A stretch of 64,000 nucleotides of DNA from an uncultured Gammaproteobacteria bacterium (GCA_964515005.1 CAZEVT010000002.1:28968-92967), one strand, 5' to 3'. Counted from the first letter of the stretch, positions 2,700 through 43,968 are shown. The notes: generated from the letters alone by a model not told the origin. Program-made: numbers and translations.

Positions 2700-3370
2700 A
2701 AGTCTCCATTCTGACCCTCTTCCCCGATATGTTCCGGGGACCCTTTGACCAATCCATTGTCCACCGGGCAGTAGAAAAAAGGCTCGTCACGATTGAATAC
2801 GTCGACATCCGCACCTTCGCCTCGGACAAATACAAAACTGTTGATGACCATCCGTATGGCGGAGGGGTAGGAATGATTCTGCGGGTTGATGTTGTCGACC
2901 GCGCACTCCAGATGGTCAAAGGCAAAAACGTCAAAGAGAAAAGTCACACGATTCTCCTGGACGCCGGGGGAACACCATACACGCAGAAAAAAGCGAGAGA
3001 ACTTTCAAATGTTGATCATCTCATTCTTGTCTGCGGCCACTATGAAGGAGTGGACGCACGCGTAAGAACGCTGGTTGATGAAGAGATTTCCATCGGCGAC
3101 TATGTCTTAACCGGTGGGGAAATACCCGCGATGGTCGTCGTCGACAGCGTCGTTCGGCTCGTCCCAGGGGTTCTTGCCAAACCCGAGGCAACCGTAAACG
3201 AGTCGTTTAACGAGTCACTCCTCGAGTATCCGCAGTACACACAACCGCGGGAATATAACGGCGTTGCCGTCCCCGAGGAACTTCTTTCCGGTAACCACGC
3301 CGCTATTGCCGCCTTTCGAAAAAAGGCGGCCATCGTTCGCACGCGAGAGCGTGCCGGCCCTACGGGCTAA
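2696..3370 (+). CDS. trmD: tRNA (guanine37-N1)-methyltransferase
   Basis: N-terminus MKVSILTLFPDMF and the DDHPYGGGVGMIL motif are typical TrmD. No rimM or rplS flank it. Confidence 0.9.
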   Translation: MKVSILTLFPDMFRGPFDQSIVHRAVEKRLVTIEYVDIRTFASDKYKTVDDHPYGGGVGMILRVDVVDRALQMVKGKNVKEKSHTILLDAGGTPYTQKKARELSNVDHLILVCGHYEGVDARVRTLVDEEISIGDYVLTGGEIPAMVVVDSVVRLVPGVLAKPEATVNESFNESLLEYPQYTQPREYNGVAVPEELLSGNHAAIAAFRKKAAIVRTRERAGPTG

Positions 3371-4118
3371 AGAGGTCTGCTTTCCCGGCGCCTTCCGATG
3401 GCGCGACGACCTCGGTTGGCCTGGAAGAAACGAGCTGGATTGCACTGGTTTTGGCAATAGTTTCCGACTCTTGTTCGGTAAGGGTGGTGATCGTCGTACC
3501 GACTGATCCGATGGAGGTCGGCAACGGCGAATAAAAGGTGTCCATATTGACATGCGCGATTACCAACGCGACGTCGTTTATTGATAACTCCACGGATCGA
3601 ATCCTAAAAAAACGGCGAATAGAGACGATCGTGGCAAGAAACTGCCGGACTTGATCAAAGGAACCCTCGACCGTAAGACTAAATGGCAGAATACTTGCTC
3701 CCGCCTCCTTTTCATCTGCAGTGATCTTTTTGGCAGACTCAGTCGCAAGCGATCCGGCGCGGGCAAGGGTAAGACTCGTCACCGAAACGCCGGTCGTTGC
3801 CGTGACCGCATCGATGCCGTCAAAAAGAGTTGCGAGGGATTTTTCGGGAGGAACCGCCGCGGCAAGCGTGAGGAGACTGGTGCGAAGCGTTTCTTCATCG
3901 ACGGACGAAAGAATCTCGTTTTTCGCCCGCAGCGTCGCAATCTCACGCGCGGCCGCTACGTTCTCTTTTTGAAGTTCAAGGGCTTTTTTCCCGAGCGGCA
4001 CAACGCCTATGAGAATGCCCGCGGCAGCAAACAGAACGGTGATGGCGGCGACTATGAGTGACTGGTAAGGCTTCAGCAATGTTTGAATATTTTGCATACG
4101 GTTAGAGTATCGCAACAA
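3360..4118 (-). CDS. pilO: Type IV pilus assembly protein PilO-like
   Basis: N-terminal transmembrane helix (LIVAAITVLFAAAGILIGVV) followed by a coiled coil (KALELQKENVAAAREIATLRAKNEIL). Last gene of the pilM-pilN-pilO operon order. Confidence 0.5.
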   Translation of the reverse strand: MLRYSNRMQNIQTLLKPYQSLIVAAITVLFAAAGILIGVVPLGKKALELQKENVAAAREIATLRAKNEILSSVDEETLRTSLLTLAAAVPPEKSLATLFDGIDAVTATTGVSVTSLTLARAGSLATESAKKITADEKEAGASILPFSLTVEGSFDQVRQFLATIVSIRRFFRIRSVELSINDVALVIAHVNMDTFYSPLPTSIGSVGTTITTLTEQESETIAKTSAIQLVSSRPTEVVAPSEGAGKADLFSP

Positions 4119-4644
4119 AAGAAAATGTTACCTCGATTGTCCCGTCGCGCGAAATGGCGAGTGACATAATTTGCGGATCTTTTATCATTTTTTCGATCGA
4201 TTGCCTGACCATCGCATCCGATACGCCAAGTACATCCTCAATCGTCGCGGCGTGGATGGCCATAACCACACGCTCGTCGGTAAGTGACACCGATGACAGT
4301 TGCGTAAGAGGCGCGGAGGCTACAACCGCGTCAAATATCGGCCCCACCGGCTTCCTCGTTGCGGCAATGGAATCCACGGCTCGCGCTCTCGCCTTTATTG
4401 CCGAAAGAAGCCCTTCTTTTATGGTACTTTGGGAAATAGCAAGGGTAAGTGTCTGACGTGTTGCTTCCAAACCATTTGCCGACGTCCGCAGGTACAGGAA
4501 TATCCCCCCGGCAAGAAGTCCTACCGCAATGAAGACCGTCAGGGCGATCGTACTTGCCTTTTTCCCGTAGGCTTCAACCGCCGCAAGTTCAGAGGGCAGA
4601 TTCGTTTTCGCTTTAATGAGATTGATGTTTTTGAGGACTGCCAT
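4102..4644 (-). CDS. pilN: Type IV pilus assembly protein PilN-like
   Basis: Short cytoplasmic N-terminus with an INLLP-like motif (INLIKAKTNLP), then a transmembrane helix. Lies between pilM and pilO. Confidence 0.5.
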   Translation of the reverse strand: MAVLKNINLIKAKTNLPSELAAVEAYGKKASTIALTVFIAVGLLAGGIFLYLRTSANGLEATRQTLTLAISQSTIKEGLLSAIKARARAVDSIAATRKPVGPIFDAVVASAPLTQLSSVSLTDERVVMAIHAATIEDVLGVSDAMVRQSIEKMIKDPQIMSLAISRDGTIEVTFSFVAIL

Positions 4645-4656: not shown

Positions 4657-5679
4657 CTATTTCTTCAGCGCCAAGCCCACGGCGACGCAAAAATTGGGTC
4701 CTTCCGCAGTCAAGACGTTAAACCGGGCGTCACGCGCAATGCCCACCCACGGGTTACCGAGTTGCACTTCTATCCCCAAGGTCTGGGCCAGATAGGTGAC
4801 CATCCCCGGAAGCCTCGCCGTTCCTCCGGAAAGGAGGACTGCCTGGACATGGTCATCTTTGTATTTTTCCTGATAAAAGGCAAGGGCCCTTTTGATCTCA
4901 TTGACCACCGTGTCCATAATGGGCTTCACCGCGGTGACGATCTTCCCCTCGAGTTTATCCGCCTGGAGTCCATACGTTTTTTTGTATTCCTCGGCCTGCG
5001 TTTCGTTAAAGTCCAATCCCTGGGCAAGGGCCCGCGTCAGGGCATCGCCTCCTGCCGAAAGCGACCGGGTAAATGCAAGAATGCCGTTTCGCACAATGGC
5101 CAAATCCGTCGTCTGGGCCCCCAAAGATACGATCATCATGCTTTTTATGCTTGGGGCAGACCGTGCAATTGCCCGCGAGGTTGCGATGATTTCTGTTTCC
5201 GCCGCGGCCGCCGTAAGCTCCGAAAGCTCCAAGATCGCAAGATATTTGTCCAAAAGCGCCTTCGGGGCGCCTACCAAGAGCACCTCCATTTTGTTTGTCC
5301 CGGTTTCGGCAGAGGTGCGAAGAATCGTATAGTCAACATTTACCTGATCCAAAGGGAGAGGAATATACTGTTCGGCCTCCCACTTAATGGCGGAGGCTAA
5401 CTCCCGGTCGGAAAGCGCGGGCACTTCGATAACCCGCGTAAACACTTTGGATTCGGGGAGCGCGATTTGAATATTCCTGCTTTTGGCCCCCGTGTCCTTC
5501 AGAAGTTTTTTTATTGCGGCAGCAACCGCCTGATTGTCCGCAGGCAGTGTGCTCGTTAATGCCTTGGGCGGCGTTGGGGTGCTTCCTGCCGCCATAAGAC
5601 CAACGCGCGGGCCATCCCATGCAAGCTCAATGAGCTTTATGGTGTGCGATCCGATATCCAGGCCAAGTGATAGGTTCAT
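4657..5679 (-). CDS. pilM: Type IV pilus assembly protein PilM (actin-like ATPase fold)
   Basis: N-terminus MNLSLGLDIGSHTIKLIEL and overall FtsA/PilM-like architecture, 340 aa. Confidence 0.85.
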   Translation of the reverse strand: MNLSLGLDIGSHTIKLIELAWDGPRVGLMAAGSTPTPPKALTSTLPADNQAVAAAIKKLLKDTGAKSRNIQIALPESKVFTRVIEVPALSDRELASAIKWEAEQYIPLPLDQVNVDYTILRTSAETGTNKMEVLLVGAPKALLDKYLAILELSELTAAAAETEIIATSRAIARSAPSIKSMMIVSLGAQTTDLAIVRNGILAFTRSLSAGGDALTRALAQGLDFNETQAEEYKKTYGLQADKLEGKIVTAVKPIMDTVVNEIKRALAFYQEKYKDDHVQAVLLSGGTARLPGMVTYLAQTLGIEVQLGNPWVGIARDARFNVLTAEGPNFCVAVGLALKK

Positions 5680-5691: not shown

Positions 5692-6549
5692 TTACTCATG
5701 GTTAATTGATCCCTCGCTATATATGGCATTGTCAAAAATCGTTGCGGGCGCCGCATGTTGCTGATACACAAAAATCTTCCTGTTGACGCCGCTTTCTGTA
5801 GTTCCTACTGACTCGATGATCCTTCCCTGTACCGGCAGGGTCGAGAGTGGAATGACGGCAAAAAGCGCCGCGTTATAGACCGGTCTAACCCGCAGTGCAA
5901 TAAGCACATCTACCGCAGGATTGATGGTGGGTTCGAGAGTGGAAAACTGCATCGTCTGTCTATAGGCAGTTCCGGTCCCTGCCCCGCACCCGCCCACCGT
6001 CGCCGTCGGCACCCCAAATTTATTTACCCCCTGGCGCGCCGGGTCCGGATCATACGCTGCTTTGGCCACGCGGTAAGAATTGTCGCTCGTCTCGCGGTAG
6101 AGGACGGTCGCAACAATGGCGGCCATTGGCGACTCCTGGCTCCAGCAAACATCAATGGAGGGCGAAGTATAAAAGGGGGTCGCATCGTCAACCGTTCCGT
6201 CGGCATTGTGAGGAGCAAGCCAAATAGTTTCGGTTTCTTCCCTGGGCGTCTTTTGCTGATACACGAGGGGCTGAGACGCCTCACCGCTTATCGATGCTAC
6301 TGAAACCGCATAGGTAAGACCTAATTTCTCGTCCACCAGCAGGGCGCTTGCAACCCCACTTCGCAGCGCTTCCTCGACGCCTGCTTCAGCCGCTGAAAAG
6401 GCCCTCGCCGATTCTTCAATATTCCGCGTGACGGAAATATTGGTCGTGCCGCGGGAAATAAGCGACAAGCCTACCGTTGTTGCAATCGTAAGAACGAGTA
6501 GTGCAATGAGTGCCGCTTGCCCGGATTGAGAGCTACGAACTCTACGCAT
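5692..6549 (-). CDS. PilX-like minor pilin / pilus-associated protein
   Basis: N-terminus SGQAALIALLVLTIATTVGLSLISRG resembles the PilX_N hydrophobic segment. Lies directly upstream of pilM, and the rest is a secreted domain. Confidence 0.4.
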   Translation of the reverse strand: MRRVRSSQSGQAALIALLVLTIATTVGLSLISRGTTNISVTRNIEESARAFSAAEAGVEEALRSGVASALLVDEKLGLTYAVSVASISGEASQPLVYQQKTPREETETIWLAPHNADGTVDDATPFYTSPSIDVCWSQESPMAAIVATVLYRETSDNSYRVAKAAYDPDPARQGVNKFGVPTATVGGCGAGTGTAYRQTMQFSTLEPTINPAVDVLIALRVRPVYNAALFAVIPLSTLPVQGRIIESVGTTESGVNRKIFVYQQHAAPATIFDNAIYSEGSINHE

Positions 6550-6654
6550 ATATAACCATTGTAGTAAGCGGAAAAATATTTAGCAAGCGCTTCTTCTTTG
6601 AGTCACGGCTCACGGCTCTTTCCGCACTACAAAAGACATGGTATTATAAAATAT

Positions 6655-6885
6655 ATGAAACGAATAGCTTTTACACGTCATGCGAATGAAATGATCGTGC
6701 TTCGCCGTCTCAACAAGAAACTGATTGAGCAGTGCATTCGCCACCCTGCCGAAATCATACCCGCAAAAGAAAATAAATACGCATATGTCAAAGACTTAGG
6801 AAAAAATTATCTGAAAGTGATTATCGCGGATGAAAAACAAGCTCTTATAGTCGTCACAGCCTATTGGTTTGCAAAAAAAAGCTAA
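6655..6885 (+). CDS. DUF4258-family toxin (type II toxin-antitoxin)
   Basis: MKRIAFTRHANEMIVLRRL...LKVIIADEKQALIVVTAYW fits the DUF4258 pattern. Its stop overlaps the partner gene, and the region is low GC. Confidence 0.5.
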   Translation: MKRIAFTRHANEMIVLRRLNKKLIEQCIRHPAEIIPAKENKYAYVKDLGKNYLKVIIADEKQALIVVTAYWFAKKS

Positions 6886-6904
6886 ACAATATACCATACG
6901 AGCT

Positions 6905-7129
6905 ATGAAGGTTACCTATGATCCCGTGGCAGATGCCATGTACATCTATTTTTCTGATAAAAAAGCCAGCACGAAGACTGTAGAGGTTCGTGACGACCTT
7001 TTTGTGGACTATGCTGGGAATGAAATGATTGGTATTGAAATTACTGACGTTTCAGGTAAACTCCCCAAAAAAGACATCATGTCGGTGACCCTCTCCATTC
7101 CTCCCGCCGGTAAAATCTCCACGGTATAG
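6905..7129 (+). CDS. DUF2283-family antitoxin partner
   Basis: MKVTYDPVADAMYIYFSD...EMIGIEI is the DUF2283 signature. Sits immediately downstream of, and overlapping, the DUF4258 gene. Confidence 0.5.
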   Translation: MKVTYDPVADAMYIYFSDKKASTKTVEVRDDLFVDYAGNEMIGIEITDVSGKLPKKDIMSVTLSIPPAGKISTV

Positions 7130-7153: not shown

Positions 7154-8743
7154 TTACGGCGCCACCTCCCGCCATACGATGCGGGCGTCTTTGAGTTGGT
7201 CCGGCATGGTAATGAGGAATTGAGGTTCGTAGAGGAAGAGTTCAGCGGAGACCGTGTTGTTTTGCCCCAGGGTATCCAGATCCCGCTGCAGGGAAATGGA
7301 CCCGGCAACGAACATACCCCGTCCGACAAACCGCTCGTGACCTGAGCTAGTCGAGAGGCCGGTTGCAAATACCCCGGTGGGGTTCGTAATATAGACGCCC
7401 TCAACGACCGGCGCGCTGCTCGTGTACGGGACGCCGACGGTGGGGTCAACCGTGATATTGCCGTTGACCAGGAATGCCAGGAACCCGGTACCGGAAACGT
7501 TGAGATTGCCGCTAATTTTCAGGTCTCCGTCAACAAAAAAGATGAGCTTCTCCCCCGAGGGCACGAGCCAGTCTCCCGAGGTTTCCATGTCCCCGGTCAC
7601 GTAGTAGGGAATGGGACTGCCGTCTGCCTTGGTTTTGGGACCGGGCTGGTTAACCGGAGTGGTAGGCTGATCATAGTCAACGGCGATTGGCTCTCCACCA
7701 AACCTGCGGTAGAAATAGAGATAGTTGTCCCGGGGGCGTGCGCGGTCCTTTGCAAGCCACTGGGAGGAAGACACAAGGTTTTCCCCCGTGAGGAACTCAT
7801 CGCTGTCCAGGTCCACGGAGTCTCCGTAGGTGACGACCCCACCCGAAGCGGCGGGGCCATTGAGGACCAAGTGTCGGGGAATCGTCCCCACCGGCACCGA
7901 ATTGGTAATCGTACTCCCCCCGTACACGTCCCCGCCCGTAACTTGGGCCCAGGCCTCGCCCAGGGTGTATCCCAAATCAAACGAAAGCGTTTCTGCGTTG
8001 ACAAACGATGCGGTGAGTCCGGTACCGGTGAGTGGCGACGTACTCGTCCTTCGAAAGCAGGACGCTTGCAGGACCAAGCCTGCCGGAGCCGCCGGGAGAA
8101 TCGTATATGTCCGGGCTTGGGCATTGGGCCAGACGGCATAGGTGGTTCCGCTTTGCGGGTTGGCTCCTCCGAGCGACGGGCTGGTGGTGTAGGAGATGGG
8201 TGACACCGGCGACGTTGCCGCGTACACGGCGTTGCAGGTGGTGTCTCCCGTCCCTATATTCCATGCCCGGGCCCGGAGAGTACCCAAGGGAATGGGGGTG
8301 GGGGTAGGAGTGGGAGGGGTGATGGGGCGGCAGGTAGCATAGGTCACTGAAGACTGTTTACAGGGCCGAACGCCTTCTCCGCAGGAACAATTTGCGCTCC
8401 CTCCTCTGACCACGCCGTTGCCGCACACTTTCCCCCAGTGCCCGCAGCCATAACTCACCACGGACCAGTCAGGATATGTACCCGGCGGACAATCGCGGTA
8501 TACCTCGCAGGCGGGATCTTTCTTCGTAGGACCAGTACATCCGCAACATATTGATGGATTCCCATTAGGGGCAGTACACGCATACATATAACAACTCGTT
8601 CCTATCGGACACACAGATTGTTCGCAACCACATGCATAAACCTGTGACTCTGGAATAAAAAAAACCAAAATAAACGACAATACAATACACCCTTGAATAA
8701 CTTTTCTGAATAGATCGTTTTTAATAATGGTTATTTGACTCAT
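7154..8743 (-). CDS. Cys-rich secreted protein with a Pro/Thr linker and a large C-terminal domain (candidate pilus-associated adhesin)
   Basis: Signal/transmembrane segment CIVLSFILVFFIP, then about 30 Cys within ~110 aa (CGCEQSVCPIGTSC...CCGCTG...CSCGEG), a PTPTPTP linker and a ~380-aa Gly/Thr/Ser-rich domain. Lies between the pilins and the PilX-like gene. Confidence 0.5.
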   Translation of the reverse strand: MSQITIIKNDLFRKVIQGCIVLSFILVFFIPESQVYACGCEQSVCPIGTSCYMYACTAPNGNPSICCGCTGPTKKDPACEVYRDCPPGTYPDWSVVSYGCGHWGKVCGNGVVRGGSANCSCGEGVRPCKQSSVTYATCRPITPPTPTPTPIPLGTLRARAWNIGTGDTTCNAVYAATSPVSPISYTTSPSLGGANPQSGTTYAVWPNAQARTYTILPAAPAGLVLQASCFRRTSTSPLTGTGLTASFVNAETLSFDLGYTLGEAWAQVTGGDVYGGSTITNSVPVGTIPRHLVLNGPAASGGVVTYGDSVDLDSDEFLTGENLVSSSQWLAKDRARPRDNYLYFYRRFGGEPIAVDYDQPTTPVNQPGPKTKADGSPIPYYVTGDMETSGDWLVPSGEKLIFFVDGDLKISGNLNVSGTGFLAFLVNGNITVDPTVGVPYTSSAPVVEGVYITNPTGVFATGLSTSSGHERFVGRGMFVAGSISLQRDLDTLGQNNTVSAELFLYEPQFLITMPDQLKDARIVWREVAP

Positions 8744-8861: not shown

Positions 8862-9947
8862 TTAGGGGTTGCCTGTCTCGTAATATAGTTGAGTATTGGG
8901 CGGAGCCGGAAGCAAATCTCCAGTTTTACCATCTATCGTCATACCCGGAGGATATGGGACAAAAATCATTGTCCCTTCCGGAGCTGGTATAAAATAATAT
9001 CCCGCCACGTTTCCGCACATGCGGCAGTCTCCATCAGCATACCAATAGCCTGTTTCTCCCCGCGAAACTAATTGTGTAATAATAAATCCAGTCCCTTTAT
9101 CATTAAGGATCCATTGAGTTTTTGCCACCTCTTCAAATAATTTACCACCCTTCACATATGGTCCAACTGCGTGGGGCATTTGTAAATCTTCCTCTACTGA
9201 ATCTTGAGATAATTCGGGTTGCGGTAAAACATACCGCAAAGGAATTTCTCCTAGTCTTTTAGAATCTTCTATGGATCTATATATCTCTTTTGGTTGAGCT
9301 GATTCATTGTTACTCTTAGATAAGATCGCCACATTGGCTGCTTGAATCGGTTCCGACACCGGAATTTCTATAGTTGCAGGAGTAACTTTTAACCCACACG
9401 CAGCTAAGATAATGAGCGGCGATACGCGAACAGCAACTTTTGCCGTTAAACCGCTTATATCAAGTATTTTTGCGCTTGTTGGATCATCAGGATCTAACTC
9501 TTTTTGCAAGTAGGCACCGTATGCTTCAAACACATTTTGTGCAGTATCTGTTGCCTTTTTGGTTAATTCATGCGTTTCCCCATGAATTTTATGCGTCTGA
9601 GGTATGTTTGCAAGAGAGTCCAGAGCAAAATACTGAAGTGATGTTAAAGCGCTTGTTTGATCTGGTGTAAGCGCCTTGGGATTTGCGTATGCCCAACTCA
9701 GTTGATCCGACATCGTCTCAGGTTTTTTGTCTCCAGCGCGCAAAAGATGCATGTCATCTTCTGTGGCAGATAGGGGTCCAAAAAGTGAAAAAAGGGCTTC
9801 TGATGCGCGGGATCCACGCATTCCCTCCTTTTGGAAAATATTAAGGTGTTCTCGTATTGTCCGATCTCCGAGGCCTTTTGCTAAAGTAAATACAACCAAA
9901 TCTCCTGTGCCCTGGTCTGCTGACGGCATAAGTTCTGGCATATTCAT
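8862..9947 (-). CDS. Hypothetical protein (low-GC island)
   Basis: 361-aa ORF with no recognisable motifs. Local GC is clearly below that of the flanking pilus genes. Confidence 0.4.
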   Translation of the reverse strand: MNMPELMPSADQGTGDLVVFTLAKGLGDRTIREHLNIFQKEGMRGSRASEALFSLFGPLSATEDDMHLLRAGDKKPETMSDQLSWAYANPKALTPDQTSALTSLQYFALDSLANIPQTHKIHGETHELTKKATDTAQNVFEAYGAYLQKELDPDDPTSAKILDISGLTAKVAVRVSPLIILAACGLKVTPATIEIPVSEPIQAANVAILSKSNNESAQPKEIYRSIEDSKRLGEIPLRYVLPQPELSQDSVEEDLQMPHAVGPYVKGGKLFEEVAKTQWILNDKGTGFIITQLVSRGETGYWYADGDCRMCGNVAGYYFIPAPEGTMIFVPYPPGMTIDGKTGDLLPAPPNTQLYYETGNP

Positions 9948-10122: not shown

Positions 10123-10647
10123 TTGAAACTTATCAAAAATAAGAGCTACACTGATTATACAATGAATTGGAGAGTCATGACCTTGTTTGTATTCATTTTT
10201 CTCATCATTATGGCTTTGGGGGCATATTATTTCCGAACTTCAATATTCCCTCAAGGTCCGTTTAATACTATATTAGAATATAAACAGGCAATCGGTTTAA
10301 TTCAGTCAAACTGCAATGAAACAATGTTCAGTGACGACCAAAGTAAAATTGATTATTTTTTAGGACTTTATTCCTCATTTGGAAGTGACATACGTATCGA
10401 CGAAGGGTCAGGCTATTTTGTATCTCCCTCAAATAAACACTTTACATTACAGTTTTTCAATGTGGAAGAAGAGACAGTCATTGCCAAACGGCAACTCATC
10501 CTCTTCCCCTCGCCTACTGAGCAAAAATCCTATTGCTGGATAGCAGAAATTGAAGACACTCCTGGCATTGGCCGCGCAGCATATGAAACCCAATCTGGAG
10601 AAATAAAAGTGATTCGGGTAAAAAATCTACCTGCATTTTCTCCATAA
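10123..10647 (+). CDS. Hypothetical membrane-anchored protein
   Basis: N-terminal transmembrane helix (VMTLFVFIFLIIMALGAYYF); AT-rich; opposite strand to the surrounding pilus operon. Confidence 0.4.
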   Translation: MKLIKNKSYTDYTMNWRVMTLFVFIFLIIMALGAYYFRTSIFPQGPFNTILEYKQAIGLIQSNCNETMFSDDQSKIDYFLGLYSSFGSDIRIDEGSGYFVSPSNKHFTLQFFNVEEETVIAKRQLILFPSPTEQKSYCWIAEIEDTPGIGRAAYETQSGEIKVIRVKNLPAFSP

Positions 10648-10693: not shown

Positions 10694-11083
10694 ATGTCTA
10701 CATCGCTCAAAGTTTTTTTTACGATATTTACCGTGTTTATCGTTGGGCTAAGCGCCTATCTTGGATACGTTTATTTTTTCCGTTCGCCAAACCTCAATCC
10801 ATCTTTGAGTCAACCAGCCGCGGGTTCTGAGTCTCAGGGGACGGACTATCAAGGTCAGATACTTTGCATCCATGATACCAAAAAAGGTACATCGCTTTCG
10901 GCGTGTGACAGTTTTGGCATGATGATGAGTGATGACACATACTATGAACTGATATTGGGCAACGGGGTACGCGCAACCGGCTACACGCAGATGGAAAAAG
11001 TAAAGGTTTCAGGAGTACTCACGCCGGGGACCTCGCCGCTGGGGCTTGACGGCACCCTGACCGTCTCCAAAATCAGCAAATAA
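10694..11083 (+). CDS. Hypothetical membrane-anchored protein
   Basis: N-terminal transmembrane helix (VFFTIFTVFIVGLSAYLGYVYFF); AT-rich; paired with the preceding gene. Confidence 0.4.
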   Translation: MSTSLKVFFTIFTVFIVGLSAYLGYVYFFRSPNLNPSLSQPAAGSESQGTDYQGQILCIHDTKKGTSLSACDSFGMMMSDDTYYELILGNGVRATGYTQMEKVKVSGVLTPGTSPLGLDGTLTVSKISK

Positions 11084-11090
11084 CCAAACA

Positions 11091-11645
11091 TTAGTTTCTC
11101 GGAGTTACCAAGCTTTGGAACTGCCACCGCGCTGCTTCAAGCGTGCCCTGGCCTTCTCCCAGCTGTCCCAAATAGAAACTGATGGTCGTTGATGATGCCA
11201 CACCCGCGCTTGTGGGACACGAGAACGTAAGGGAATTATCTGCACAGCTAAAATCTCCCGACGCGCTCAGAGTTACCGAGCCATCGGTTAAATAGGAGAT
11301 TGTGCCTGTTGCCGATACCGAGGCGATACGCGCCGCAGTCCCATCCGATACACACGTGACCGTTGTCGTTGCGTTATCCGCATTACGGAATACCGCAGAC
11401 GGCGTCGTTACCTCCGCTGCATCGCAGACGGTCTCGACTGCCACGGCGTCCCGTATGAGCCGCTCAAGCACTCCCAGGGCAAACTCCCCGCTGCTTTTCA
11501 CGTTCTCAAGGGTACCTACTTTTTTGTTGACCCGGGTCGTCGTAAACAGGACCTGCGTGATAAGCGTACTGACTACGGCCAGTATCCCCACGGAAATAAG
11601 CACCTCAATAAGCGTAAATCCCCGGAACTTGAATATTTTTTTCAT
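11091..11645 (-). CDS. Type IV pilin-like (prepilin) protein
   Basis: Class III signal peptide MKKIFKFRG|FTLIEVLISVGILAVV, with Glu at position +5. Confidence 0.65.
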   Translation of the reverse strand: MKKIFKFRGFTLIEVLISVGILAVVSTLITQVLFTTTRVNKKVGTLENVKSSGEFALGVLERLIRDAVAVETVCDAAEVTTPSAVFRNADNATTTVTCVSDGTAARIASVSATGTISYLTDGSVTLSASGDFSCADNSLTFSCPTSAGVASSTTISFYLGQLGEGQGTLEAARWQFQSLVTPRN

Positions 11646-11646
11646 A

Positions 11647-12108
11647 TCATCTCCACTGAGTCAAATAGGTCTCAAGCTCCACAGAATTTCCCGACGTTCC
11701 GGTCTCTCCCCACGATACGTCAACGCGTACGGACATTTTTTCGACTGGATTAGTTGGGCTCTCCGGGATAAGCCGCAAGGTCACCATGCGGATATACAGG
11801 TCGCCGATATTCTGTGCACTGCAGGTCGTACTCGTTGCCACGAATTCGGCGTTTTCTCCAACACAATACCCCGTTTCTACTGCACCCATTTCCGCAAATT
11901 TATTCCACGAATCATCCCGAAGTTGTCGCGCCAGCTCTATCCCTTCGGCCGCGTACTTGGTGGCAGTGCTGCGCACCTGCGTGTCCTGGGCACTCCCCAA
12001 AACTGCCGTCGTCCCCGCAATGATGCCGACGGCCAGAACAACGACAACGCCGATAACCACGACCATCTCCACCAGTGACTGCCCTTGTTGATACAGGTAT
12101 TTTTTCAT
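11647..12108 (-). CDS. Prepilin-like minor pilin
   Basis: QQG|QSLVEMVVVIGVVVVLAVGII is a degenerate prepilin leader with Glu at +5. Tightly packed with the neighbouring pilin genes. Confidence 0.5.
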   Translation of the reverse strand: MKKYLYQQGQSLVEMVVVIGVVVVLAVGIIAGTTAVLGSAQDTQVRSTATKYAAEGIELARQLRDDSWNKFAEMGAVETGYCVGENAEFVATSTTCSAQNIGDLYIRMVTLRLIPESPTNPVEKMSVRVDVSWGETGTSGNSVELETYLTQWR

Positions 12109-12111
12109 GCG

Positions 12112-12606
12112 TTATGGCACCTCGTCCACAATACCGGACGACAGCACGGAAAGCCTCGCCGTGTTTGTGTTTGCCGAAATTTCGATCACCTGCGCCACCG
12201 ACGCACCCCGGTCAAGCGGCAGGAAAAGAAACATCTGGGGCAGGAGAGTAAACATCACCCCCGGAGGAAGCGTATAGGTTTCTTTTATCCCTACCTCTTC
12301 TTGCACTCCTTGCGCCTCGCAGAGGGCAGTTGCGGTATAGGTGTTCGTCGTTGGAAATTCGACTCTGTACCCCACGAGCGTGTCGCACCCTTCCGGCTTG
12401 ATCCCGGACGCGGCACGTGTACGCGCTGCCCCGAGATTACTCTTGAGCGTGAGCGCGGCTTGAGTGACGGTTTGTTTATCGTTAAATCTACTGTACCCCG
12501 CAATCAGAAGTCCTGATAAAACAAGAAGGAGAGTGACGCTTACCAGTATTTCAATAAAGGTAAAACCGGCGCGCTGGCAGGATGGCTTAGGGGTTCTTAA
12601 TTCCAT
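12112..12606 (-). CDS. Type IV pilin-like protein
   Basis: QRAG|FTFIEILVSVTLLLVL prepilin motif. Start placed at the internal Met (MELRTPKP), giving a short leader. Confidence 0.6.
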   Translation of the reverse strand: MELRTPKPSCQRAGFTFIEILVSVTLLLVLSGLLIAGYSRFNDKQTVTQAALTLKSNLGAARTRAASGIKPEGCDTLVGYRVEFPTTNTYTATALCEAQGVQEEVGIKETYTLPPGVMFTLLPQMFLFLPLDRGASVAQVIEISANTNTARLSVLSSGIVDEVP

Positions 12607-13057
12607 AATTGCACTCTGCAGGAAGCTGGGTAACGCCAAGCGGTGCACATTCGTTTTTCCCGGCCTGCGTTTCTATCCAGCCGCAGAGGCAATAGGAGTA
12701 AAAATTCGTACCCGTTCCGCCTACCACGGGATTATAGAAATACGTCTTGATCGCCAAAGGGACACTTTGGGGATCCATAGGAACAGACGGAAGGTACGTG
12801 GGGACCAAAGGCCCAGTCCCATCCCCGGAATCGAGTCCGGTTAATGCCACAAATCCGGTAACGGTCCCCGGATATACGCCGTTGTCAGCCCGGTAGAGCT
12901 CAAGGGCGCTTCGCACCTGTTCAAGGTCGGAAACGCGCTTGGCGTCGCGGGACCGTTTGTTGACCGATGCATACGATACCATGCCGATTGCAGATAAAAC
13001 AGATACGATGGTTGCGGCAACCAGTATTTCGATAAGGGTAAAGCCTTTATTTCTCAT
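12587..13057 (-). CDS. GspG/PulG-like pseudopilin / type IV pilin
   Basis: MRNKG|FTLIEILVA followed by DAKRVSDLEQVRSALELYRADNGVYP, the GspG-type signature. Confidence 0.7.
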   Translation of the reverse strand: MRNKGFTLIEILVAATIVSVLSAIGMVSYASVNKRSRDAKRVSDLEQVRSALELYRADNGVYPGTVTGFVALTGLDSGDGTGPLVPTYLPSVPMDPQSVPLAIKTYFYNPVVGGTGTNFYSYCLCGWIETQAGKNECAPLGVTQLPAECNYGIKNP

Positions 13058-13467
13058 TGCAGATTGTGCACGCAAAAGAACCCTTTGTATGCGCCCGATG
13101 CCGTGCCGCCGCCACAGTCTACATCTGTGTTGGTTTCACCCTCAAGGCCGGCGCACAAACAATAACTTGCGGCCGCGCATTGACTCCTTCCGGGAGCATC
13201 GGTATAGAGCTCACCTGATTTGGGGTCTTTGGGAATCCCACCGGGCAAATACGCCGCGCTTATGGCACAGCTTAATGGGTAATTACTATTGTTGTCTGCG
13301 TAATACTGCTCCCAGGCGTTTTGCATAGCCTTCATGTCACTCCGTCTTCTGGTGTCGCGGGTTTTCAGTTGCGCGGAGGCATACGATACCGCGCTCACCG
13401 ACACCAAAATACCGATAAGGGCGATGACGATAAGGAGTTCAATAAGGGTAAAGCCTTTTCTTTTCAT
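13054..13467 (-). CDS. Type IV pilin (GspG-like)
   Basis: MKRKG|FTLIELLIVIALIGIL followed by DMKAMQNAWEQYYADNNSNYP, with C-terminal Cys pairs. Confidence 0.7.
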   Translation of the reverse strand: MKRKGFTLIELLIVIALIGILVSVSAVSYASAQLKTRDTRRRSDMKAMQNAWEQYYADNNSNYPLSCAISAAYLPGGIPKDPKSGELYTDAPGRSQCAAASYCLCAGLEGETNTDVDCGGGTASGAYKGFFCVHNLQ

Positions 13468-20497: not shown

Positions 20498-23400
20498 ATG
20501 GCCAAAATTTCTGACAAATATTCAGGAAGCGACATCGTTGTTTTGGAAGGACTTGAGCCCGTCCGGAAGCGCCCGGCCATGTACATCGGCACAACCGCCC
20601 TTGCCGGCGTCCACCACTGCTTAAACGAAATTATCGACAACTCCATCGACGAAGCTTTAGCCGGATACGCCAAAAACGTCTGGGTGACGATCCACAAAGA
20701 CGACAGCGTAACCGTTATTGACGACGGCCGCGGCATTCCGATTGATAAAAATCCGAAATATAAGGTCTCGGCTCTCGAGCTCGTCATGACCAAGCTCCAC
20801 GCAGGCGGCAAATTTGAGGGCAAAGCATACAAAGTCTCCGGAGGCTTGCACGGGGTTGGTGCATCAGTCGTCAATGCGCTTTCCAGTGCCCTCAAGGTCG
20901 AAGTGCACCGCGAGGGAGGGGCATTCGTTCAGGAATATAAGAGAGGCAAACCGTTGGGACCCATCAAGAGGGTGGGGAAGGCAAAGGACACCGGCACGAC
21001 CGTTGTCTTTTTGCCCGACACCGAGATATTTAAAGAAGGAATTGCACTCAACTTTGAAATGGTCAAAAAACAGGTCCGCGACCGGGCCTATCTTATTGCC
21101 CGCCTCGCGTTTCATCTTACTGACGAGCGAAGCGGCGAGGCGGCCCACTACTATTTTGAAGGCGGCATCACGTCACTGGTGAAAGCATTAAATAGAAATA
21201 AAGTCGTCGTCCACACTCCCATTTCAATAACGAGATCCGCAGAAGATGGCAGCATGAACGTCGAAGTGGCAATCCAGTACAACGACGGATTTTCCGAAAT
21301 CGTCGAATCGTACGTCAACGTGATTGCAACGGCCGAGGGGGGCACACACCTCACGGGCTTTCGTATGGCCTTGACGCGCGCCGTTAACGACTACGGCAAG
21401 AAAATAGGCGCGTTTAAGGCAGACTCCGACGCCATAACAGGCGAGGATACCCGCGAAGGGTTGACTGCCATCGTCTATGTGAAAATGCCTTCCCAATATC
21501 TGCAATTTGAGGGGCAAACTAAGGGCAAACTCGGTAACGCCGAGGTCCAGCCGTTTGTCCAGTCAGCAGTCAAAGAGGGGCTCGATACCTACTTTGAAGA
21601 AAACCCCGCAGAGGGACGAAAGATTTTAGAAAAAGTCTACCTCGCGGCAAGGGCGAGGCTCGCGGCCAAAGCCGCCAAAGACGCCGTCATTCGAAAAGGC
21701 GCGCTTGAAGGCGCAAGCCTTCCCGGCAAGCTCGCCGACTGTCAGGAAAAAGATCCGAGTGTCTCCGAACTTTTCATCGTCGAGGGAGATTCCGCAGGCG
21801 GATGTTTTTCCGCTGATACAAAAGTTGCGCTCACGGATGGACGAAATTTGGCATTCAAGGATCTGATCAAAGAATACGATTCGGGCAGACAGAATTACTG
21901 CTACACCATCCAAAAAAATGGTGCCGTGGGTGTTGCCCCAATACAAAATCCGAGGATCACCAATAAACATACAACCGTCATCAAAATTATTCTGGATAGC
22001 GACGAAGAAATCACGTGTACTCCTGACCATCTTTTCATGCTTCGGGACGGCTCATATAAAGAAGCACACCATCTGACCCCTGCAGATTCTTTGATGCCTT
22101 TGAGGCGCCAATTGTCTCATGTCGGCAAGTGGATTACCATCGAAGGCTATGAATTGGTGTTTGATCCAGCACTCAACCGATGGCTCTTCACTCATGTACT
22201 GGCAGATGAGTACAATCTCCAGCGCGGCGTATATAAACAAGAGGACGGGAACCACCGCCATCATATCGACTTTAACAAACAAAACAACAATCCCGATAAC
22301 ATTACGAGGATTTCAAAGGATGATCATCTTGCCCTCCACAGGAGTATTCTTGAAAAAACTATTCATAGACCCGATGTCAAACAAAAAGTCGCCGCCCTCC
22401 ATAAAACCGCCGCGTTTCGTCAAAAAATAAGACTGGCAATGACCCAACCCCGTATGCGCAAGCTTTTGAGTGCTCGTGCTAAAAAACAATGGCAAGACCC
22501 TACATATAAAACGTATATGACTCAAAAATTTCTCGATTTCTATTCGAACAATAAAGAATATCAGGAAAAAAACAATGCTCTTTTAGATAAAGAACAAAAG
22601 AAATATTGGGGTGATACACAGCACAGACATCTTCAGGCTGATCGCGTGCAGACATTCTTTGTGAACCATCCGGAACGCAAAGAACAACTTCGCGCATTGG
22701 CCAACAATCAGTGGTCAGACGAATCGCTGCGCACATGGCGCCGTCAAAAGACAAAAGAGCAGTGGACGAACGCATTCCGATTACAACGAAAGGACTCATA
22801 TAATAAGATGTATCTTCGAAAAGCGCTTGCAACACTCCATTCCATCTATGAAGCAAAAGGGGAAATAAGTCCAAGTGAGTATCAACACATACGATTAACT
22901 TCACGGGACAAAAGCCTTATTCGATACGAAACAATCCGCCGGAGATTTTTCAACGATGATGAGCATCTATTTGAGCAGGCCATTATGAACTATAATCACA
23001 AAATTAGAAAAATAATTTCTCTTGAGAAACGAATGGACGTGTATGACATAGAGGTCCCCGGAACACATAATTTTGCCCTGGCTTCCGGAGTGTTTGTCCA
23101 CAACAGCGCCAAACAGGGCCGCGACCGCAAATTCCAGGCTATCTTGCCGCTTCGGGGGAAAATCCTCAATACCGAGCGGGCACGGCTTGATAAGATCATC
23201 GAATTTGAAGAACTCAAGGCGCTCGTTATAGCGCTCGGCATGGGCATTGCCGATAGCTTAAATCCCGAGAAGCTTCGCTATCACCGCGTGATCATCATGA
23301 CGGATGCCGACGTCGACGGCGAACACATCATGACGCTACTTTTGACCTTCTTCTATCGTCATTTACCCTATATCGTTGAGAAAGGGCACCTCTACATCGC

Positions 23401-23722
23401 CCAGCCGCCCCTCTATAAAATCACCTGGGCCAAGGAATCCCATTACGCCTACTCCGATGACGAGCGGGACACGATCACCAAAGAACAGGGCAAATCCATG
23501 AAGACCGCCCCCACCATTCAACGGTACAAAGGCCTCGGAGAAATGAACCCCGACCAGCTCTGGGAAACCACCATGAATCCGGTCAACCGCGTCATGCGGC
23601 AGGTAACGATTGTGGACGCGGCCGCGGCAGACAACGTGTTTGCCATGCTCATGGGGGACGAGGTGCCGCCGAGAAAGAGATTTATTCAGACCCATGCAAA
23701 AAATGCGACATTGGATATATAA
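20498..23722 (+). CDS. gyrB: DNA gyrase subunit B, interrupted in frame by a 434-aa intein
   Basis: GHKL ATPase motifs at the N-terminus. TOPRIM EGDSAGG, then CFSADTKVAL...VFVHN, then SAKQGRDRKF. The exteins total 640 aa, a normal GyrB length. Confidence 0.95.
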   Translation: MAKISDKYSGSDIVVLEGLEPVRKRPAMYIGTTALAGVHHCLNEIIDNSIDEALAGYAKNVWVTIHKDDSVTVIDDGRGIPIDKNPKYKVSALELVMTKLHAGGKFEGKAYKVSGGLHGVGASVVNALSSALKVEVHREGGAFVQEYKRGKPLGPIKRVGKAKDTGTTVVFLPDTEIFKEGIALNFEMVKKQVRDRAYLIARLAFHLTDERSGEAAHYYFEGGITSLVKALNRNKVVVHTPISITRSAEDGSMNVEVAIQYNDGFSEIVESYVNVIATAEGGTHLTGFRMALTRAVNDYGKKIGAFKADSDAITGEDTREGLTAIVYVKMPSQYLQFEGQTKGKLGNAEVQPFVQSAVKEGLDTYFEENPAEGRKILEKVYLAARARLAAKAAKDAVIRKGALEGASLPGKLADCQEKDPSVSELFIVEGDSAGGCFSADTKVALTDGRNLAFKDLIKEYDSGRQNYCYTIQKNGAVGVAPIQNPRITNKHTTVIKIILDSDEEITCTPDHLFMLRDGSYKEAHHLTPADSLMPLRRQLSHVGKWITIEGYELVFDPALNRWLFTHVLADEYNLQRGVYKQEDGNHRHHIDFNKQNNNPDNITRISKDDHLALHRSILEKTIHRPDVKQKVAALHKTAAFRQKIRLAMTQPRMRKLLSARAKKQWQDPTYKTYMTQKFLDFYSNNKEYQEKNNALLDKEQKKYWGDTQHRHLQADRVQTFFVNHPERKEQLRALANNQWSDESLRTWRRQKTKEQWTNAFRLQRKDSYNKMYLRKALATLHSIYEAKGEISPSEYQHIRLTSRDKSLIRYETIRRRFFNDDEHLFEQAIMNYNHKIRKIISLEKRMDVYDIEVPGTHNFALASGVFVHNSAKQGRDRKFQAILPLRGKILNTERARLDKIIEFEELKALVIALGMGIADSLNPEKLRYHRVIIMTDADVDGEHIMTLLLTFFYRHLPYIVEKGHLYIAQPPLYKITWAKESHYAYSDDERDTITKEQGKSMKTAPTIQRYKGLGEMNPDQLWETTMNPVNRVMRQVTIVDAAAADNVFAMLMGDEVPPRKRFIQTHAKNATLDI
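21803..23104 (+). mobile_element. Intein (Hint domain plus HNH-type homing endonuclease) in gyrB
   Basis: Cys1 follows GG. Block B is ITCTPDH, and the C-terminus VFVHN|S gives HN plus Ser+1. Internal HNH motif NHRHHIDFNKQNNNPDNITRISKDDHLALH. In-frame length 1302 nt. Confidence 0.8.
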
Positions 23723-23751: not shown

Positions 23752-25755
23752 ATGAATGCAGTCACACTATCACTCGCGGCCGGAATCCTTTCGGTTCTCT
23801 ACGGGATATTTTTGTCGGTTCGTATCATGCGGCTTCCCACGGGAACGCCGGATATGAACGCCATTGCCGCCGCTATTGCCGAAGGGGCAAAAGCATTCTT
23901 GGCCCGGCAATATAAAACAATCGGACTTCTGGCGCTCGGCATTGCGGCTCTTCTGTATTACACGCTGGGTCCTGACTCCGCCGTTGCCTTCGGGATCGGC
24001 GCGGTGTGCTCGGCCGTTGCCGGATTTATCGGCATGAATATTTCGGTTAGGGCCAATATCCGCACCGCGCAGGCTGCCAAAACCGGACTTGCCGCGGCCC
24101 TGAACGTCGCGTTTTCCGGAGGAGCCGTAACGGGTCTTATGGTTGCGGGGCTCGCGCTTCTTTCGGTTGCCGCCACATATATGACGCTCGGAAATGAAGT
24201 GGGAGGACAGTTGGATCTCAAACCGCTTATTGCCCTTGGATTCGGAGGGTCTTTGATATCGGTATTTGCCCGCCTCGGCGGCGGAATCTACACGAAGGGT
24301 GCCGACGTGGGAACCGATATGGTCGGCAAAATCGAAAAGGGGATTCCGGAGGATGACCCGAGGAACCCCGGGGTCATTGCGGATCTGGTCGGCGACAACG
24401 TCGGGGACGATGCGGGCATGGCTGCAGACCTATTTGAAACATACGTCGTGACCGCAGTTGCTGCCATTTTACTCGGCCAGCTTCTGCTGCCGGGATTTGC
24501 AAATGCGATCTTCTATCCGATGGTCGTGGGGGCAGGTGGCATTGTTGCATCCATCATCGGCATCGGATTTGTAAAACTCGGGCGGGGCAAAAAGATTATG
24601 CAGGCCCTCTATAAAGGACTTCTGGCCGCGTCTCTTTTGTCGGCCGTCCTCTTTTTTGTCATCACACAGTTTATGATGGCCGGAAACGGTGTCTATGGGG
24701 CAGGAAGCTTGTTTTTGGCAAGTCTCATCGGCATCATCGTAACCCTTGGCATGGTTGCCATCACCGAATTCTATACCTCCAAGTCTTACGGCGCGATCAA
24801 AGCGCTGGCAAAGGCAAGTGAAACCGGACACGGCACCAATATCATCGCAGGGCTTGCCCTTTCGATGAAATCAACCCTTGCCCCCGTGATTCTGATTGCC
24901 GCAGCCATGCTTGGAGCGTACGCCTTGGCCGGCCTCTATGGCATCGCGGTTGCCGCCATGAGTATGATATCCCTCACCGGCATTGTGGTTGCCATTGATG
25001 CGTTTGGCCCGATAACAGACAACGCAGGCGGCATTGCGGAGATGACCAACCAACCGGAAGAGGTGAGAAAAATTACCGATGCCCTGGACTCGGTCGGCAA
25101 TACCACCAAAGCCGTGACCAAGGCCTACGCGATTGCGTCGGCGGGACTTGCCGCACTCGTCCTTTTTGCCTCATATACCCAGGAGCTTGGCGGCAGTCTT
25201 ACCTTTAGTCTGTCGGATCCGAATGTGGTCGTCGGGCTTTTGATTGGCGCCGCCATGCCCTATGTATTTGCAGCCCTTGCGATGGAGGCAGTAGGCAAAG
25301 CCGCCGGAGCCATAGTTATCGAAGTACGGCGGCAGTTTAAAACAATAAAAGGAATCATGACGGGCAAAGCCAAACCCGAATATGGCAAGGCCGTCGACAT
25401 TGTCACCAAGGCGGCGCTCCGAGAAATGACCGTGCCCGCACTCTTACCCGTTGCCGCTCCCATTGTGGTGGGATTTCTCTTGGGGCCATCTGCCCTCGGC
25501 GGACTCCTCATGGGAACGATCGTCACGGGACTGTTTGTCGCTATCTCCATGACAACGGGAGGCGCGGCCTGGGACAATGCCAAAAAGTATATTGAGGAAG
25601 GCCACTTGGGCGGCAAAGGAAGTCCTGCCCATCAGGCGGCAGTCACCGGCGATACCGTGGGCGACCCGTATAAAGATACCGCGGGACCGGCCATAAATCC
25701 CATGATCAAGGTCACGAATATCGTGGCGCTTTTGATCGCCGGATTCCTCCGCTGA
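23752..25755 (+). CDS. hppA: Membrane-bound proton/sodium-translocating pyrophosphatase
   Basis: [29 protein letters not shown] and a C-terminal [14 protein letters not shown] signature. About 16 transmembrane segments. Confidence 0.9.
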
Positions 25756-31756: not shown

Positions 31757-32726
31757 CGGAATCAACAATCAGAGAAACAAAATCGGCAAACGTCAGTCCG
31801 ACGGCGCGGTACGAAAGCGTCATGCCATACTCCACATCATCAGAGAGTCCCGGATTGCTATTTGCTTCAAGAATATACACTGTCCCACCCCGCATTCGTA
31901 CGTCCAGACGCATATAGTCTTGAAATGAAAGCTCGACAAATGCGCGAGTTGCGATATCAACAAGAGCCTCCGCAAGCTCCGGCGAAAGGACGGCCAAGGC
32001 CATATCGGACGACTGGTAATCCGCGGCAGATGCGTCCCAGCGGCTTTCGTAGGTCAGAAGTGCATCTGTCCCTTTCGTCTTGTAGACGACTTCGGCCGCA
32101 GGCAGCACCCATGGAGAGCCGTTTTTTTCAATGACCGTCACCTGAAACTCACGCCCGTCCAAAAATTCCTCAGCAATCATGGGCTCGCGAAGCGTCTCAA
32201 TCCGCTCTTTGATCCGGGCTGTCAGTTCCTCTTTGTTTTTTACCACTGCATCATGGGTTAAGCCCACGCTGCTGTGCTCAAGCGGGGGCTTGACGATGAC
32301 TGGATATACAAAATCATCGCGAATATCCTCATCTCCTGTCGTAAATTCCTGCCAAAGGGCAATCGGCAACCCCCGAAGGTCAAGCGCTTTTTTCATGCTG
32401 CGCTTGTCTGAAGTTTCCATAAAATTTTCCCGCGTGGCACCGGTCACCGGAATGCCGATTTTTCCCATGGCCGTAAGGGCGCGGTCCGAAAGGGGTAAAT
32501 CCGGACCGGTCCATTCGATAATGTTGAAGATGCAATCGGCCTGAATATTTTCAATCGTCGGCGCGATTTTGTCCTCGGCAACAGGAACGAGAGTCACCGT
32601 GTGACCATGAGACTCTAGGGCGTTTTGCACTTCGCGGGCTGATTCGGCGGTATCATCCTCCGACTCCATATATTTGGTGCCTGAAGCTCTCTTGGTTGGC
32701 AGATTATAGACGACAGCGACGTTCAT
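31731..32726 (-). CDS. ddl: D-alanine--D-alanine ligase (ATP-grasp)
   Basis: ATP-grasp motifs and a C-terminal MRLDVRM...VYILEANSNPGLS, which is Ddl-like. Confidence 0.7.
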   Translation of the reverse strand: MNVAVVYNLPTKRASGTKYMESEDDTAESAREVQNALESHGHTVTLVPVAEDKIAPTIENIQADCIFNIIEWTGPDLPLSDRALTAMGKIGIPVTGATRENFMETSDKRSMKKALDLRGLPIALWQEFTTGDEDIRDDFVYPVIVKPPLEHSSVGLTHDAVVKNKEELTARIKERIETLREPMIAEEFLDGREFQVTVIEKNGSPWVLPAAEVVYKTKGTDALLTYESRWDASAADYQSSDMALAVLSPELAEALVDIATRAFVELSFQDYMRLDVRMRGGTVYILEANSNPGLSDDVEYGMTLSYRAVGLTFADFVSLIVDSAMRRAAKA

Positions 32727-34741: not shown

Positions 34742-35278
34742 CTACTTACGATGAAATCTTTGGAAAGTATCCCGCGAAAATCGAAGTTTTTCCTCCTGCC
34801 ATGAGTTGTATCCGGTGCCGCGCAAAAACATGTGAAGCATTAAATTTTTCTCCTCGTAAAATGGATATGGAACATTGCCAATCCAAATAACACGGTCGTC
34901 ATTGAGAAAAATTCTTACACACGAAGGATCCGTTGTGCCGCATTCTATGATGAAACGCCCATCCCGTGTGCGGATATCAGGATGTAATCCATCAAACTCA
35001 GATTCAAAAAGAACGTAGGATTGTCCTTGGTGTATCAACCACCGTTTTCCAAGCTTTTTGAGCGCCATATGGCCTTTTTCCTGCGGTCCTAAGCCTTCGG
35101 TGACAGCGATCGTATCCTGAATCTCGTGATAGGCTTCGACCGAAGCGATTACGGATTTTTCATAACGTACTGCGCCGTTGTCTATGGCAATCGCAAGCTC
35201 ATCAAGCACATCCCACGACGTGGCCGCCGGAAATCCGGAATAAAAAATATTTTTGAGTTCTTCGGAAGTCGGATTCAT
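34742..35278 (-). CDS. Hypothetical protein
   Basis: 178 aa, no recognisable motifs. Overlaps the stop of the downstream integrase by 4 nt. Confidence 0.35.
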   Translation of the reverse strand: MNPTSEELKNIFYSGFPAATSWDVLDELAIAIDNGAVRYEKSVIASVEAYHEIQDTIAVTEGLGPQEKGHMALKKLGKRWLIHQGQSYVLFESEFDGLHPDIRTRDGRFIIECGTTDPSCVRIFLNDDRVIWIGNVPYPFYEEKNLMLHMFLRGTGYNSWQEEKLRFSRDTFQRFHRK

Positions 35279-40728: not shown

Positions 40729-40730
40729 TG

Positions 40731-43967: not shown

Positions 43968-43968
43968 T

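Follow-up and report, generated by a model that had tools for sequence, protein, structure and literature searches.

A secreted, non-pilin protein family with a variable head and a conserved solenoid body as a candidate accessory component of the type IV pilus tip

We analysed a 64,000-nucleotide (nt) stretch of DNA from an uncultured Gammaproteobacteria bacterium (GCA_964515005.1 CAZEVT010000002.1:28968-92967; hereafter the window), in which an open reading frame (ORF) on the minus strand (7154..8743; ATG start, 529 amino acids, aa) lies inside a type IV pilus (T4P) locus. Its product combines a signal segment, a Cys-rich module, a Pro/Thr (PT) linker, an immunoglobulin (Ig)-like sandwich, a beta-solenoid and a conserved C-terminal tail, and defines a large unannotated family with a variable head, a conserved body and a measurable link to the minor pilins of the pilus tip. 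We give about an even chance to the reading that this target is an accessory protein at the pilus tip, not itself a pilin but an analogue of PilY1, in which the conserved C-terminus docks and the variable head binds a ligand. As the pilus part that would hold on to a host or surface it is a good candidate, though an unproven one. Host recognition and attachment in the ultrasmall bacteria of the Candidate Phyla Radiation (CPR)/Patescibacteria are a central open question for which type IV pili are the main suspects, and the candidate CPR adhesins so far are mainly Saccharibacteria pilins with accessory domains. What is new here is a proposed non-pilin analogue of tip adhesins on a different fold in CPR bacteria, and with it a testable candidate for CPR host recognition.

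Domain anatomy, fold and family conservation

The ORF exists as quoted in a first-pass annotation of the window, and its product begins, as stated there, with a signal or anchor segment: aa 1-37 (8633..8743; all parts are on the minus strand) read as a Sec-type signal peptide or anchor, in which a basic n-region precedes a hydrophobic core and the last residues are V-Y-A|C. The Cys-dense module that follows is present, with 16 Cys (an even number), but it spans 101 aa (aa 38-138, 8330..8632) and not the roughly 110 aa given for it. It is joined by the predicted PT hinge, RPITPPTPTPTPIP (aa 139-152, 8288..8329), to a C-terminal region that had been described as a Gly/Ser/Thr-rich, beta-type domain of about 380 aa. 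This description is accurate: aa 153-529 make up 377 aa with 11% Gly, 19% Ser+Thr and two Cys only, C170 and C229, both in family-conserved columns of the family alignment. In an AlphaFold model built with that alignment, aa 150-520 reach a predicted local distance difference test score (pLDDT) of 85-98 and form an Ig-like (CnaB/transthyretin-type) beta-sandwich (~aa 153-262; 7958..8287), which carries the conserved Cys pair, and then a triangular beta-solenoid (aa 263-520; 7184..7957), which we assign to the ice-binding-protein/ComZ class because of its fold matches in Foldseek. The protein ends in a tail, ...IVWREVAP-COOH (aa 521-529, 7157..7183).

Searching Pfam, NCBIfam, PHROGs and the PDB with the target sequence returned nothing beyond a weak match to the Pfam family DUF7305 at aa 380-455 (E 5.5e-4; 20.3 bits, below the gathering cut-off of 27 bits). 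22 of 35 homologues match DUF7305 as well (E <=0.01, best 7e-9), over regular solenoid rungs. The earlier statement that no family could be recognised thus needs amending for DUF7305. Family members that carry any annotation at their source are called 'hypothetical protein'. DUF7305 itself has no assigned function, and membership in it, borderline for the target, therefore explains nothing. The view of the product as a secreted surface protein that does not look like an enzyme is supported. Type IV pilin identity is ruled out: the N-terminus is of Sec type, holds no prepilin motif G-F-T-L-I-E and, unlike the neighbouring pilins, has no N_methyl or TIGR02532 match. The N-termini of the homologues carry classic AxA signals.

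35 relatives of the target were found in a search of 5.8 billion proteins, and in a HMMER scan a profile made from them matched about 3,600 representatives of protein clusters built at 50% identity (E <=1e-3), of which 936 reached E <=1e-30. The source organisms, as far as names are given, are for the most part Gottesmanbacteria, Woesebacteria, Pacebacteria, Shapirobacteria and other Microgenomates-type Patescibacteria. No second family copy is encoded within the window. In a search of the protein database with a profile of the solenoid only, the family relatives were 'hypothetical proteins' only, and none of them was fused to a pilin.

Conservation is confined to the C-terminal ~375 residues, while the N-terminal regions vary in length and content and total lengths range from about 450 to 1,300 aa. 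Most of these variable regions are Cys-rich (median 8% Cys, versus 0.8% in the body), many include PT linkers, and some hold other modules, such as Hint or PT-HINT domains (two of the 35) and GBS_Bsp-like repeats. The same gradient is seen between the target and its closest homologue (P0002), with identities of 21% in the first half of the Cys-rich module (aa 38-75), 59% in its second half (aa 76-138), 65% in the Ig-like domain and 74% in the solenoid. The Cys pattern had been taken to resemble a small disulfide-rich binding module, which is not borne out as a conserved unit: the head is the hypervariable part of the family, it is covered by one homologue only, its pLDDT is below 50 and no fold can be assigned to it.

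The best-conserved motif of the family is its extreme C-terminus. 146 of 167 retrieved family sequences end exactly in W-[Q/E]-E-V-A-P-COOH, a motif whose W, E and P never vary, and a second family clade has the terminal motif W-Q-E-T-N-COOH. In the monomer model of the target, aa 523-529 have a pLDDT below 50 and the tail is left unplaced. A segment that is best conserved and yet unplaced in the monomer shows a pattern typical of one that folds on a partner, and the free invariant C-terminal peptide thus suggests a protein partner.

Some further features of the N-terminal regions deserve mention. The intein-like Hint/PT-HINT modules lie inside the variable part of two homologues (P0012, aa ~94-235; P0028, aa ~42-195), in one case directly after the signal anchor, and such a module might free the protein from its anchor by self-cleavage. 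In three homologues (P0007, P0012 and P0016), W..CS.SCG.G...C motifs just N-terminal of the conserved body look by eye like thrombospondin type-1 repeats; no Pfam TSP_1 match at E <=0.01 was reported for the variable regions of these three proteins.

Linkage to minor-pilin genes and a proposed role at the pilus tip

The family is genuinely and strongly linked to genes of the pilus tip, although this applies to a minority of its members. To remove ascertainment bias, we chose a sample centred on PilX, the PilK-type minor pilin (80 metagenome loci plus two genomes, of which 74 were informative). In 14 of the 74 loci, pilX comes directly after a family member (with a bAvd-like gene between the two in one case), and in four further loci a family member lies convergent just after the PilMNO genes; pilin F is directly upstream of PilX in about 50. 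Against a null of 1-3 copies per ~1,000 genes, the adjacency of family and PilX has a binomial P <1e-20, a statistic that ignores shared ancestry; by our estimate, no fewer than four or five separate lineages lie behind it. The order of family member then PilX is fixed across a whole lineage (L101-L113 and L131).

In a family-centred sample of 47 species-level loci, nine have T4P genes within 10 kb of the family member, in two configurations. In the first, the family member is followed by PilX and then by PilM/PilN/PilO, like in the window (L010, L024 and L027). In the second, a small transmembrane protein, the family member and a GspJ-like pilin are encoded one after another, in a unit that converges on the main pilin operon (best seen in L033, L034, L039, L044 and L045; in L052, the contig ends before the pilin). 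The pilus-linked members fall in both deep clades of the family in a rough neighbour-joining tree.

Reading frames overlap in both configurations. In three loci (L101 ~3293, L110 ~7983 and L131 ~1710) the stop codon of the family member overlaps the start of PilX as CC-ATG-A, so that the ATG with which PilX begins is contained in the conserved last family codons (…GCx CCA TGA). A different clade has the GspJ-like pilin begin within the family ORF, with an overlap of 19 nt (L033 4684-4702 and L045 587-605), and there the pilin start (MAR…) falls in the codons that surround the conserved Trp (…A TGG CAA GAA…). Such stop/start overlaps are a classic signature of translational coupling and therefore suggest that the products are made in fixed proportion.

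In PilC/PilY1, the last ~10 residues insert as a beta-strand into the sheet of a PilK-type minor pilin; the same insertion is predicted for MshQ, GspK of the type II secretion system supplies the strand in cis, and the authors pointed out that further, unidentified tip subunits could be found via such strands (bioRxiv 10.64898/2026.02.14.705861; PMC13533445). For bacteria without PilY1, a ComZ-type solenoid has been proposed as a 'tip plug' (bioRxiv 10.64898/2026.02.12.705559). We propose that the target, secreted by the Sec route, could be analogous in function, though not homologous, to PilC/PilY1 and MshQ. Its Ig-solenoid body would dock onto the minor-pilin tip complex (PilK-like PilX plus the GspJ-like pilin), with the W-x-E-V-A-P-COOH peptide possibly added as a strand to the beta-sheet of the partner, and the PT linker and the hypervariable, putatively disulfide-rich N-terminal module would project outward as a head that binds a ligand or host. 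This model predicts that the protein would fail to associate with PilX or the GspJ-like pilin if it lacked the invariant C-terminal hexapeptide. Extracytoplasmic disulfide machinery of the MdbA/VKOR type is enriched in CPR bacteria (bioRxiv 10.1101/335083), and we count the even number of Cys in the head, alongside this machinery, in favour of the model.

More tentatively, Microgenomates-type CPR bacteria may possess a non-pilin tip-adhesin family of their own, related to PilC/PilY1 neither in sequence nor in fold, in which a ComZ-type solenoid acting in trans docks on the PilK/PilJ-type minor pilins via the invariant WxEVAP peptide, and in which interchangeable, hypervariable, disulfide-rich heads from several paralogues at scattered genomic positions set the specificity of the pilus for host or surface; we regard this wider proposal as possible rather than probable. 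If it is true, the principle of a strand supplied in trans by a tip adhesin would extend to a lineage without PilY1, and a handle on host-range determinants would be gained.

The comparison with PilC/PilY1 and MshQ goes beyond the C-terminus. Like these proteins, the target bears a Sec signal in place of one for prepilins; its N-terminal region varies while its C-terminal region is conserved, strictly so at the extreme end, and several unlinked paralogues are possible. Like that of PilC/PilY1, its gene lies beside PilJ/PilK-type minor pilin genes (between pilin F and PilX), which is true for a minority of the family, and its placement in an H-I-J-K set mirrors that of pilY1 and mshQ beside pilIJK genes (PMC13533445). 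Unlike PilC/PilY1, it has no vWA domain and no PilY1 beta-propeller (no Pfam match, and a fold made of Ig and beta-solenoid parts). Because most related PilX loci lack it in cis, priming probably does not depend on it.

With ComZ of Thermus thermophilus and the solenoid-bearing PilX pilins, the target shares a triangular, ice-binding-like beta-solenoid. In ComZ and in the cyanobacterial PilX/HpsA-type proteins the solenoid is inserted in a GspK-like pilin fold, between the last two strands, whereas the target carries its solenoid on a protein of its own, which is secreted by the Sec route, lacks a pilin domain and has no detectable sequence similarity to them. The candidate pilus-tip adhesins of the TM7x Saccharibacteria, PilX1 and PilX2, bear bulky lectin-like domains (PMC11623550); these are pilin-like, with the accessory domain in cis, whereas the target belongs to another CPR class and is a distinct protein that is not a pilin. 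The likeness to ice-binding proteins (DUF3494/IBP-1 fold) is one of fold only, with no Pfam match, a different domain context and nothing suggesting ice binding. The target also falls outside the sortase-anchored Gram-positive pilins and microbial surface components recognizing adhesive matrix molecules (MSCRAMMs), which are characterized by a C-terminal LPXTG sorting signal with a transmembrane segment after it and by CnaB-type Ig domains.

One observation touches on topology. A Cys follows the predicted signal cleavage site (+1) in the target and in several homologues (VYA|C, VMA|C, SAA|C and KAA|C), not universally, and the window encodes Lgt (48501-49316, minus strand). The N-terminus may be lipidated, which would invert the topology proposed above; by eye, the N-termini of the target, P0002 and the L004 member do not fit what we take to be the PROSITE-type lipobox pattern.

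The window locus and the weighing of other readings

The window contains a complete Gram-positive-style T4P cluster in the order PilB, PilT, PilC, pilin, PilD, five further pilins, a PilX_N/GspK-like gene, PilM, PilN and PilO. The minor pilins (11091-13467, minus strand) include, on the evidence of N_methyl, gspH and gspJ matches, the GspH-like pilin D (12112-12648, minus; weak NCBIfam match), pilin E (11647-12108, minus) and the GspJ-like pilin F (11091-11645, minus; weak NCBIfam match). The PilX-like (PilK/GspK-type) minor pilin, which is the proposed docking partner, is encoded at 5692-6549 (minus), lacks Glu5 and is followed downstream by PilM (4657-5679), PilN (4102-4644) and PilO (3360-4118), all on the minus strand. 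Pilins D, E and F together with PilX amount to a full H-I-J-K set, and the target gene is located between J and K.

The first-pass annotation had placed the gene between the minor pilins and PilX on the same strand; the strand and position are right, but the gene is contiguous with neither. Pilin F is separated from it by orf361 (8862-9947, minus, 361 aa, upstream of the target), orf174 (10123-10647, plus) and orf129 (10694-11083, plus), none of which has a family match. On the PilX side there is a DUF4258/DUF2283 toxin-antitoxin-like pair (6598-7129, plus), convergent with the target. Because this plus-strand pair intervenes and contiguity is missing, a transcript shared with PilX is unlikely. 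Homologues of orf174 and orf129 accompany the closest homologue of the target in L001, and a homologue of orf174 is present in L010.

The slot just upstream of PilX varies in content: in the window it is occupied by the DUF4258/DUF2283 pair, in the nearest relative (L055 8857-9922) by an MNT/HepT pair, and by a 23S_rRNA_IVP/bAvd-like gene in L024 (8496-8852) and L123.

Several observations weigh against a role at the pilus tip, and the first of these concern the window itself. The inserted block around the target has a GC content of 0.37-0.48, compared with 0.53-0.55 for the pilus genes, and there are promoter-like sites (consensus matches only) before orf361 and before the target. With the low-GC flanks, the toxin-antitoxin-like pair and the promoter-like sites of its own, the position of the gene may reflect an insertion hotspot. 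PilX, moreover, already has an accessory domain: the model shows a complete protein with a pilin fold plus a jelly-roll (carbohydrate-binding module/lectin-like) domain and no solenoid, resembling PilX1 of Saccharibacteria (pilin plus jelly-roll; PMC11623550). The conservation of the C-terminal tail of PilX is the same with or without an adjacent family member, that is, the two do not co-vary.

The same holds for the genomic contexts of the relatives. P0002 (65% identity) adjoins uvrC-transglutaminase-uvrA, about 100 kb away from the pilus locus of its own genome, and an even closer fragment, with 84% identity over the C-terminal 270 aa (P0288), shares this uvrC setting. In the nearest relative, whose PilX is 78% identical, the T4P locus has a HepT/MNT pair at the position of the target block and no family member. 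In a complete Gottesmanbacteria chromosome, the five small ORFs after PilD (two with N_methyl matches) run straight into PilX, and the family member is found near the origin, not in the pilus locus. About 20 of the ~55 fetched family loci lie upstream of (bAvd-like)-murL-murD2-rnpA-yidC-jag near the origin, often just after dnaA and dnaN. The window copy looks recently placed, with its nearest orthologues elsewhere. Co-occurrence with T4P loci, which the first-pass annotation had named as a check, is found for part of the family and missing for the closest homologues of the target; that annotation had also named absence from the pilus loci of close relatives, with presence elsewhere, as a result that would refute its suggestion, and this is partly the case. 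About three quarters of related PilX loci have no family member in cis, and for that reason the protein would be accessory and not core; alternatively, it may act in trans, in the manner of the unlinked pilC genes in Neisseria.

These contexts would fit another reading, namely that the protein is a pilus-independent surface or secreted adhesin or an envelope protein. Its conserved Ig-solenoid body would either attach it to the wall or S-layer or provide the functional surface, and its gene would land repeatedly in a variable, insertion-prone spot between the minor pilins and PilX. The uvrC neighbourhood of the closest homologues, the origin-proximal position as the commonest context (by the envelope genes murL, murD2, yidC and wzy), the toxin-antitoxin pairs (window and L055) and bAvd-like gene (L024 and L123) in the slot and the lower GC of the block all agree with it. 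The Ig domain is like those in the stalks of Gram-positive wall-anchored adhesins, and solenoids of the ice-binding fold are known in non-pilus proteins, e.g. the ice-binding proteins that tie with ComZ in our comparison. A hotspot alone, however, leaves unexplained the ATGA overlap with PilX in three loci, the 19-nt overlap with the GspJ-like pilin in a different clade, and the fixed gene order in L101-L113 and L131. Pfam and NCBIfam scans of the target revealed no LPXTG, SLH, LysM or other known wall-anchor motif, and a free invariant C-terminal peptide suggests a protein partner. We consider this reading a serious but minority possibility.

The fold evidence also counts partly against the tip-protein reading, as it does not single out ComZ. 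The top Foldseek match of the target model is FfIBP, a weak one (E 0.013), and ComZ is not among the 50 rows listed; in the fold comparison, the ComZ match of the solenoid is no better than those of ice-binding proteins. A search of the PDB with the family profile gave a compositional Notch LNR match only (E 2.8) and no link to ComZ at the sequence level. This bears further on the idea of a ComZ-like DNA receptor, with a solenoid that binds extracellular DNA for uptake by a competence-type pilus, an ability that CPR bacteria auxotrophic for nucleotides could use. The fold match, however, is generic and ties with ice-binding proteins, the two lysines implicated in DNA binding by ComZ are located between its pilin and solenoid domains (PMC6561018) while the target has no pilin domain, and a hypervariable N-terminal head suits diverse ligands better than DNA, so that we think a DNA receptor improbable.

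A secreted enzyme (a beta-helix of polysaccharide lyase or hydrolase type) or a polymorphic-toxin-like effector, with Hint-containing relatives releasing a toxic fragment, is more improbable still. Beta-solenoids are frequent in glycan-degrading enzymes and two homologues hold Hint or PT-HINT modules; against this, no enzyme or toxin family was matched in Pfam, NCBIfam, PADLOC-independent scans or PHROGs, and pectate-lyase-type helices score far below the ice-binding fold. In polymorphic toxins the HINT domain is immediately upstream of a C-terminal toxin, whereas in this family Hint is confined to the variable N-terminus of 2 out of 35 homologues, not before a C-terminal toxin, and is absent from the target.

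We also considered three other origins or arrangements. A 'split ComZ', i.e. a PilX pilin domain with a separately encoded solenoid, is weakened by the completeness of PilX with its own jelly-roll domain. A phage origin was rejected, with no family member in IMG/VR and no PHROG match. The bAvd-like genes downstream of the family member in several loci raised the possibility that the protein is the target of a diversity-generating retroelement. This reading was rejected: the genes called in L005 and L006 showed no reverse-transcriptase Pfam match, and the C-terminus of the family is invariant, not variable.

Recurrent neighbours and other features of the window

Genes upstream of the family differ among the context classes, and no upstream partner is common to all of them. 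In the GspJ-coupled clade, a conserved small membrane-anchored protein of 160-200 aa is encoded directly before the family member (L033 1277-1828, L042 8287-8772, L044 8109-8717 and L052 8169-8759), and its gene overlaps that of the family member in L044 and L052; it is unrelated to orf174 of the window (hhalign probability 13%). Downstream, a gene for a four-helix bundle of the bAvd/23S_rRNA_IVP type recurs directly after the family member (L005 12241-12597, L006 11735-12124, L019 ~10485, L021 ~6980 and L024 8496-8852). The C-terminal tail of PilX (...P..IFD..IYS.GS) is conserved and, like that of the target, unplaced in the model; it may itself be a partner-binding strand.

Elsewhere in the window, a low-GC stretch (40000-46000; 0.43-0.46) includes a 568-aa ORF (40731-42437) with no Pfam match beside a 393-aa Trans_reg_C protein, and two tyrosine recombinase (XerC/D-type) genes are found less than 3 kb apart (32723-33670 and 35275-36291, both on the minus strand). 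The gyrB gene (20498-23722, plus strand; 1,074 aa) contains an intein (Intein_splicing, aa 451-869) before the Toprim domain, and a H+-pyrophosphatase gene (23752-25755) lies between gyrB and gyrA (25771-28287).

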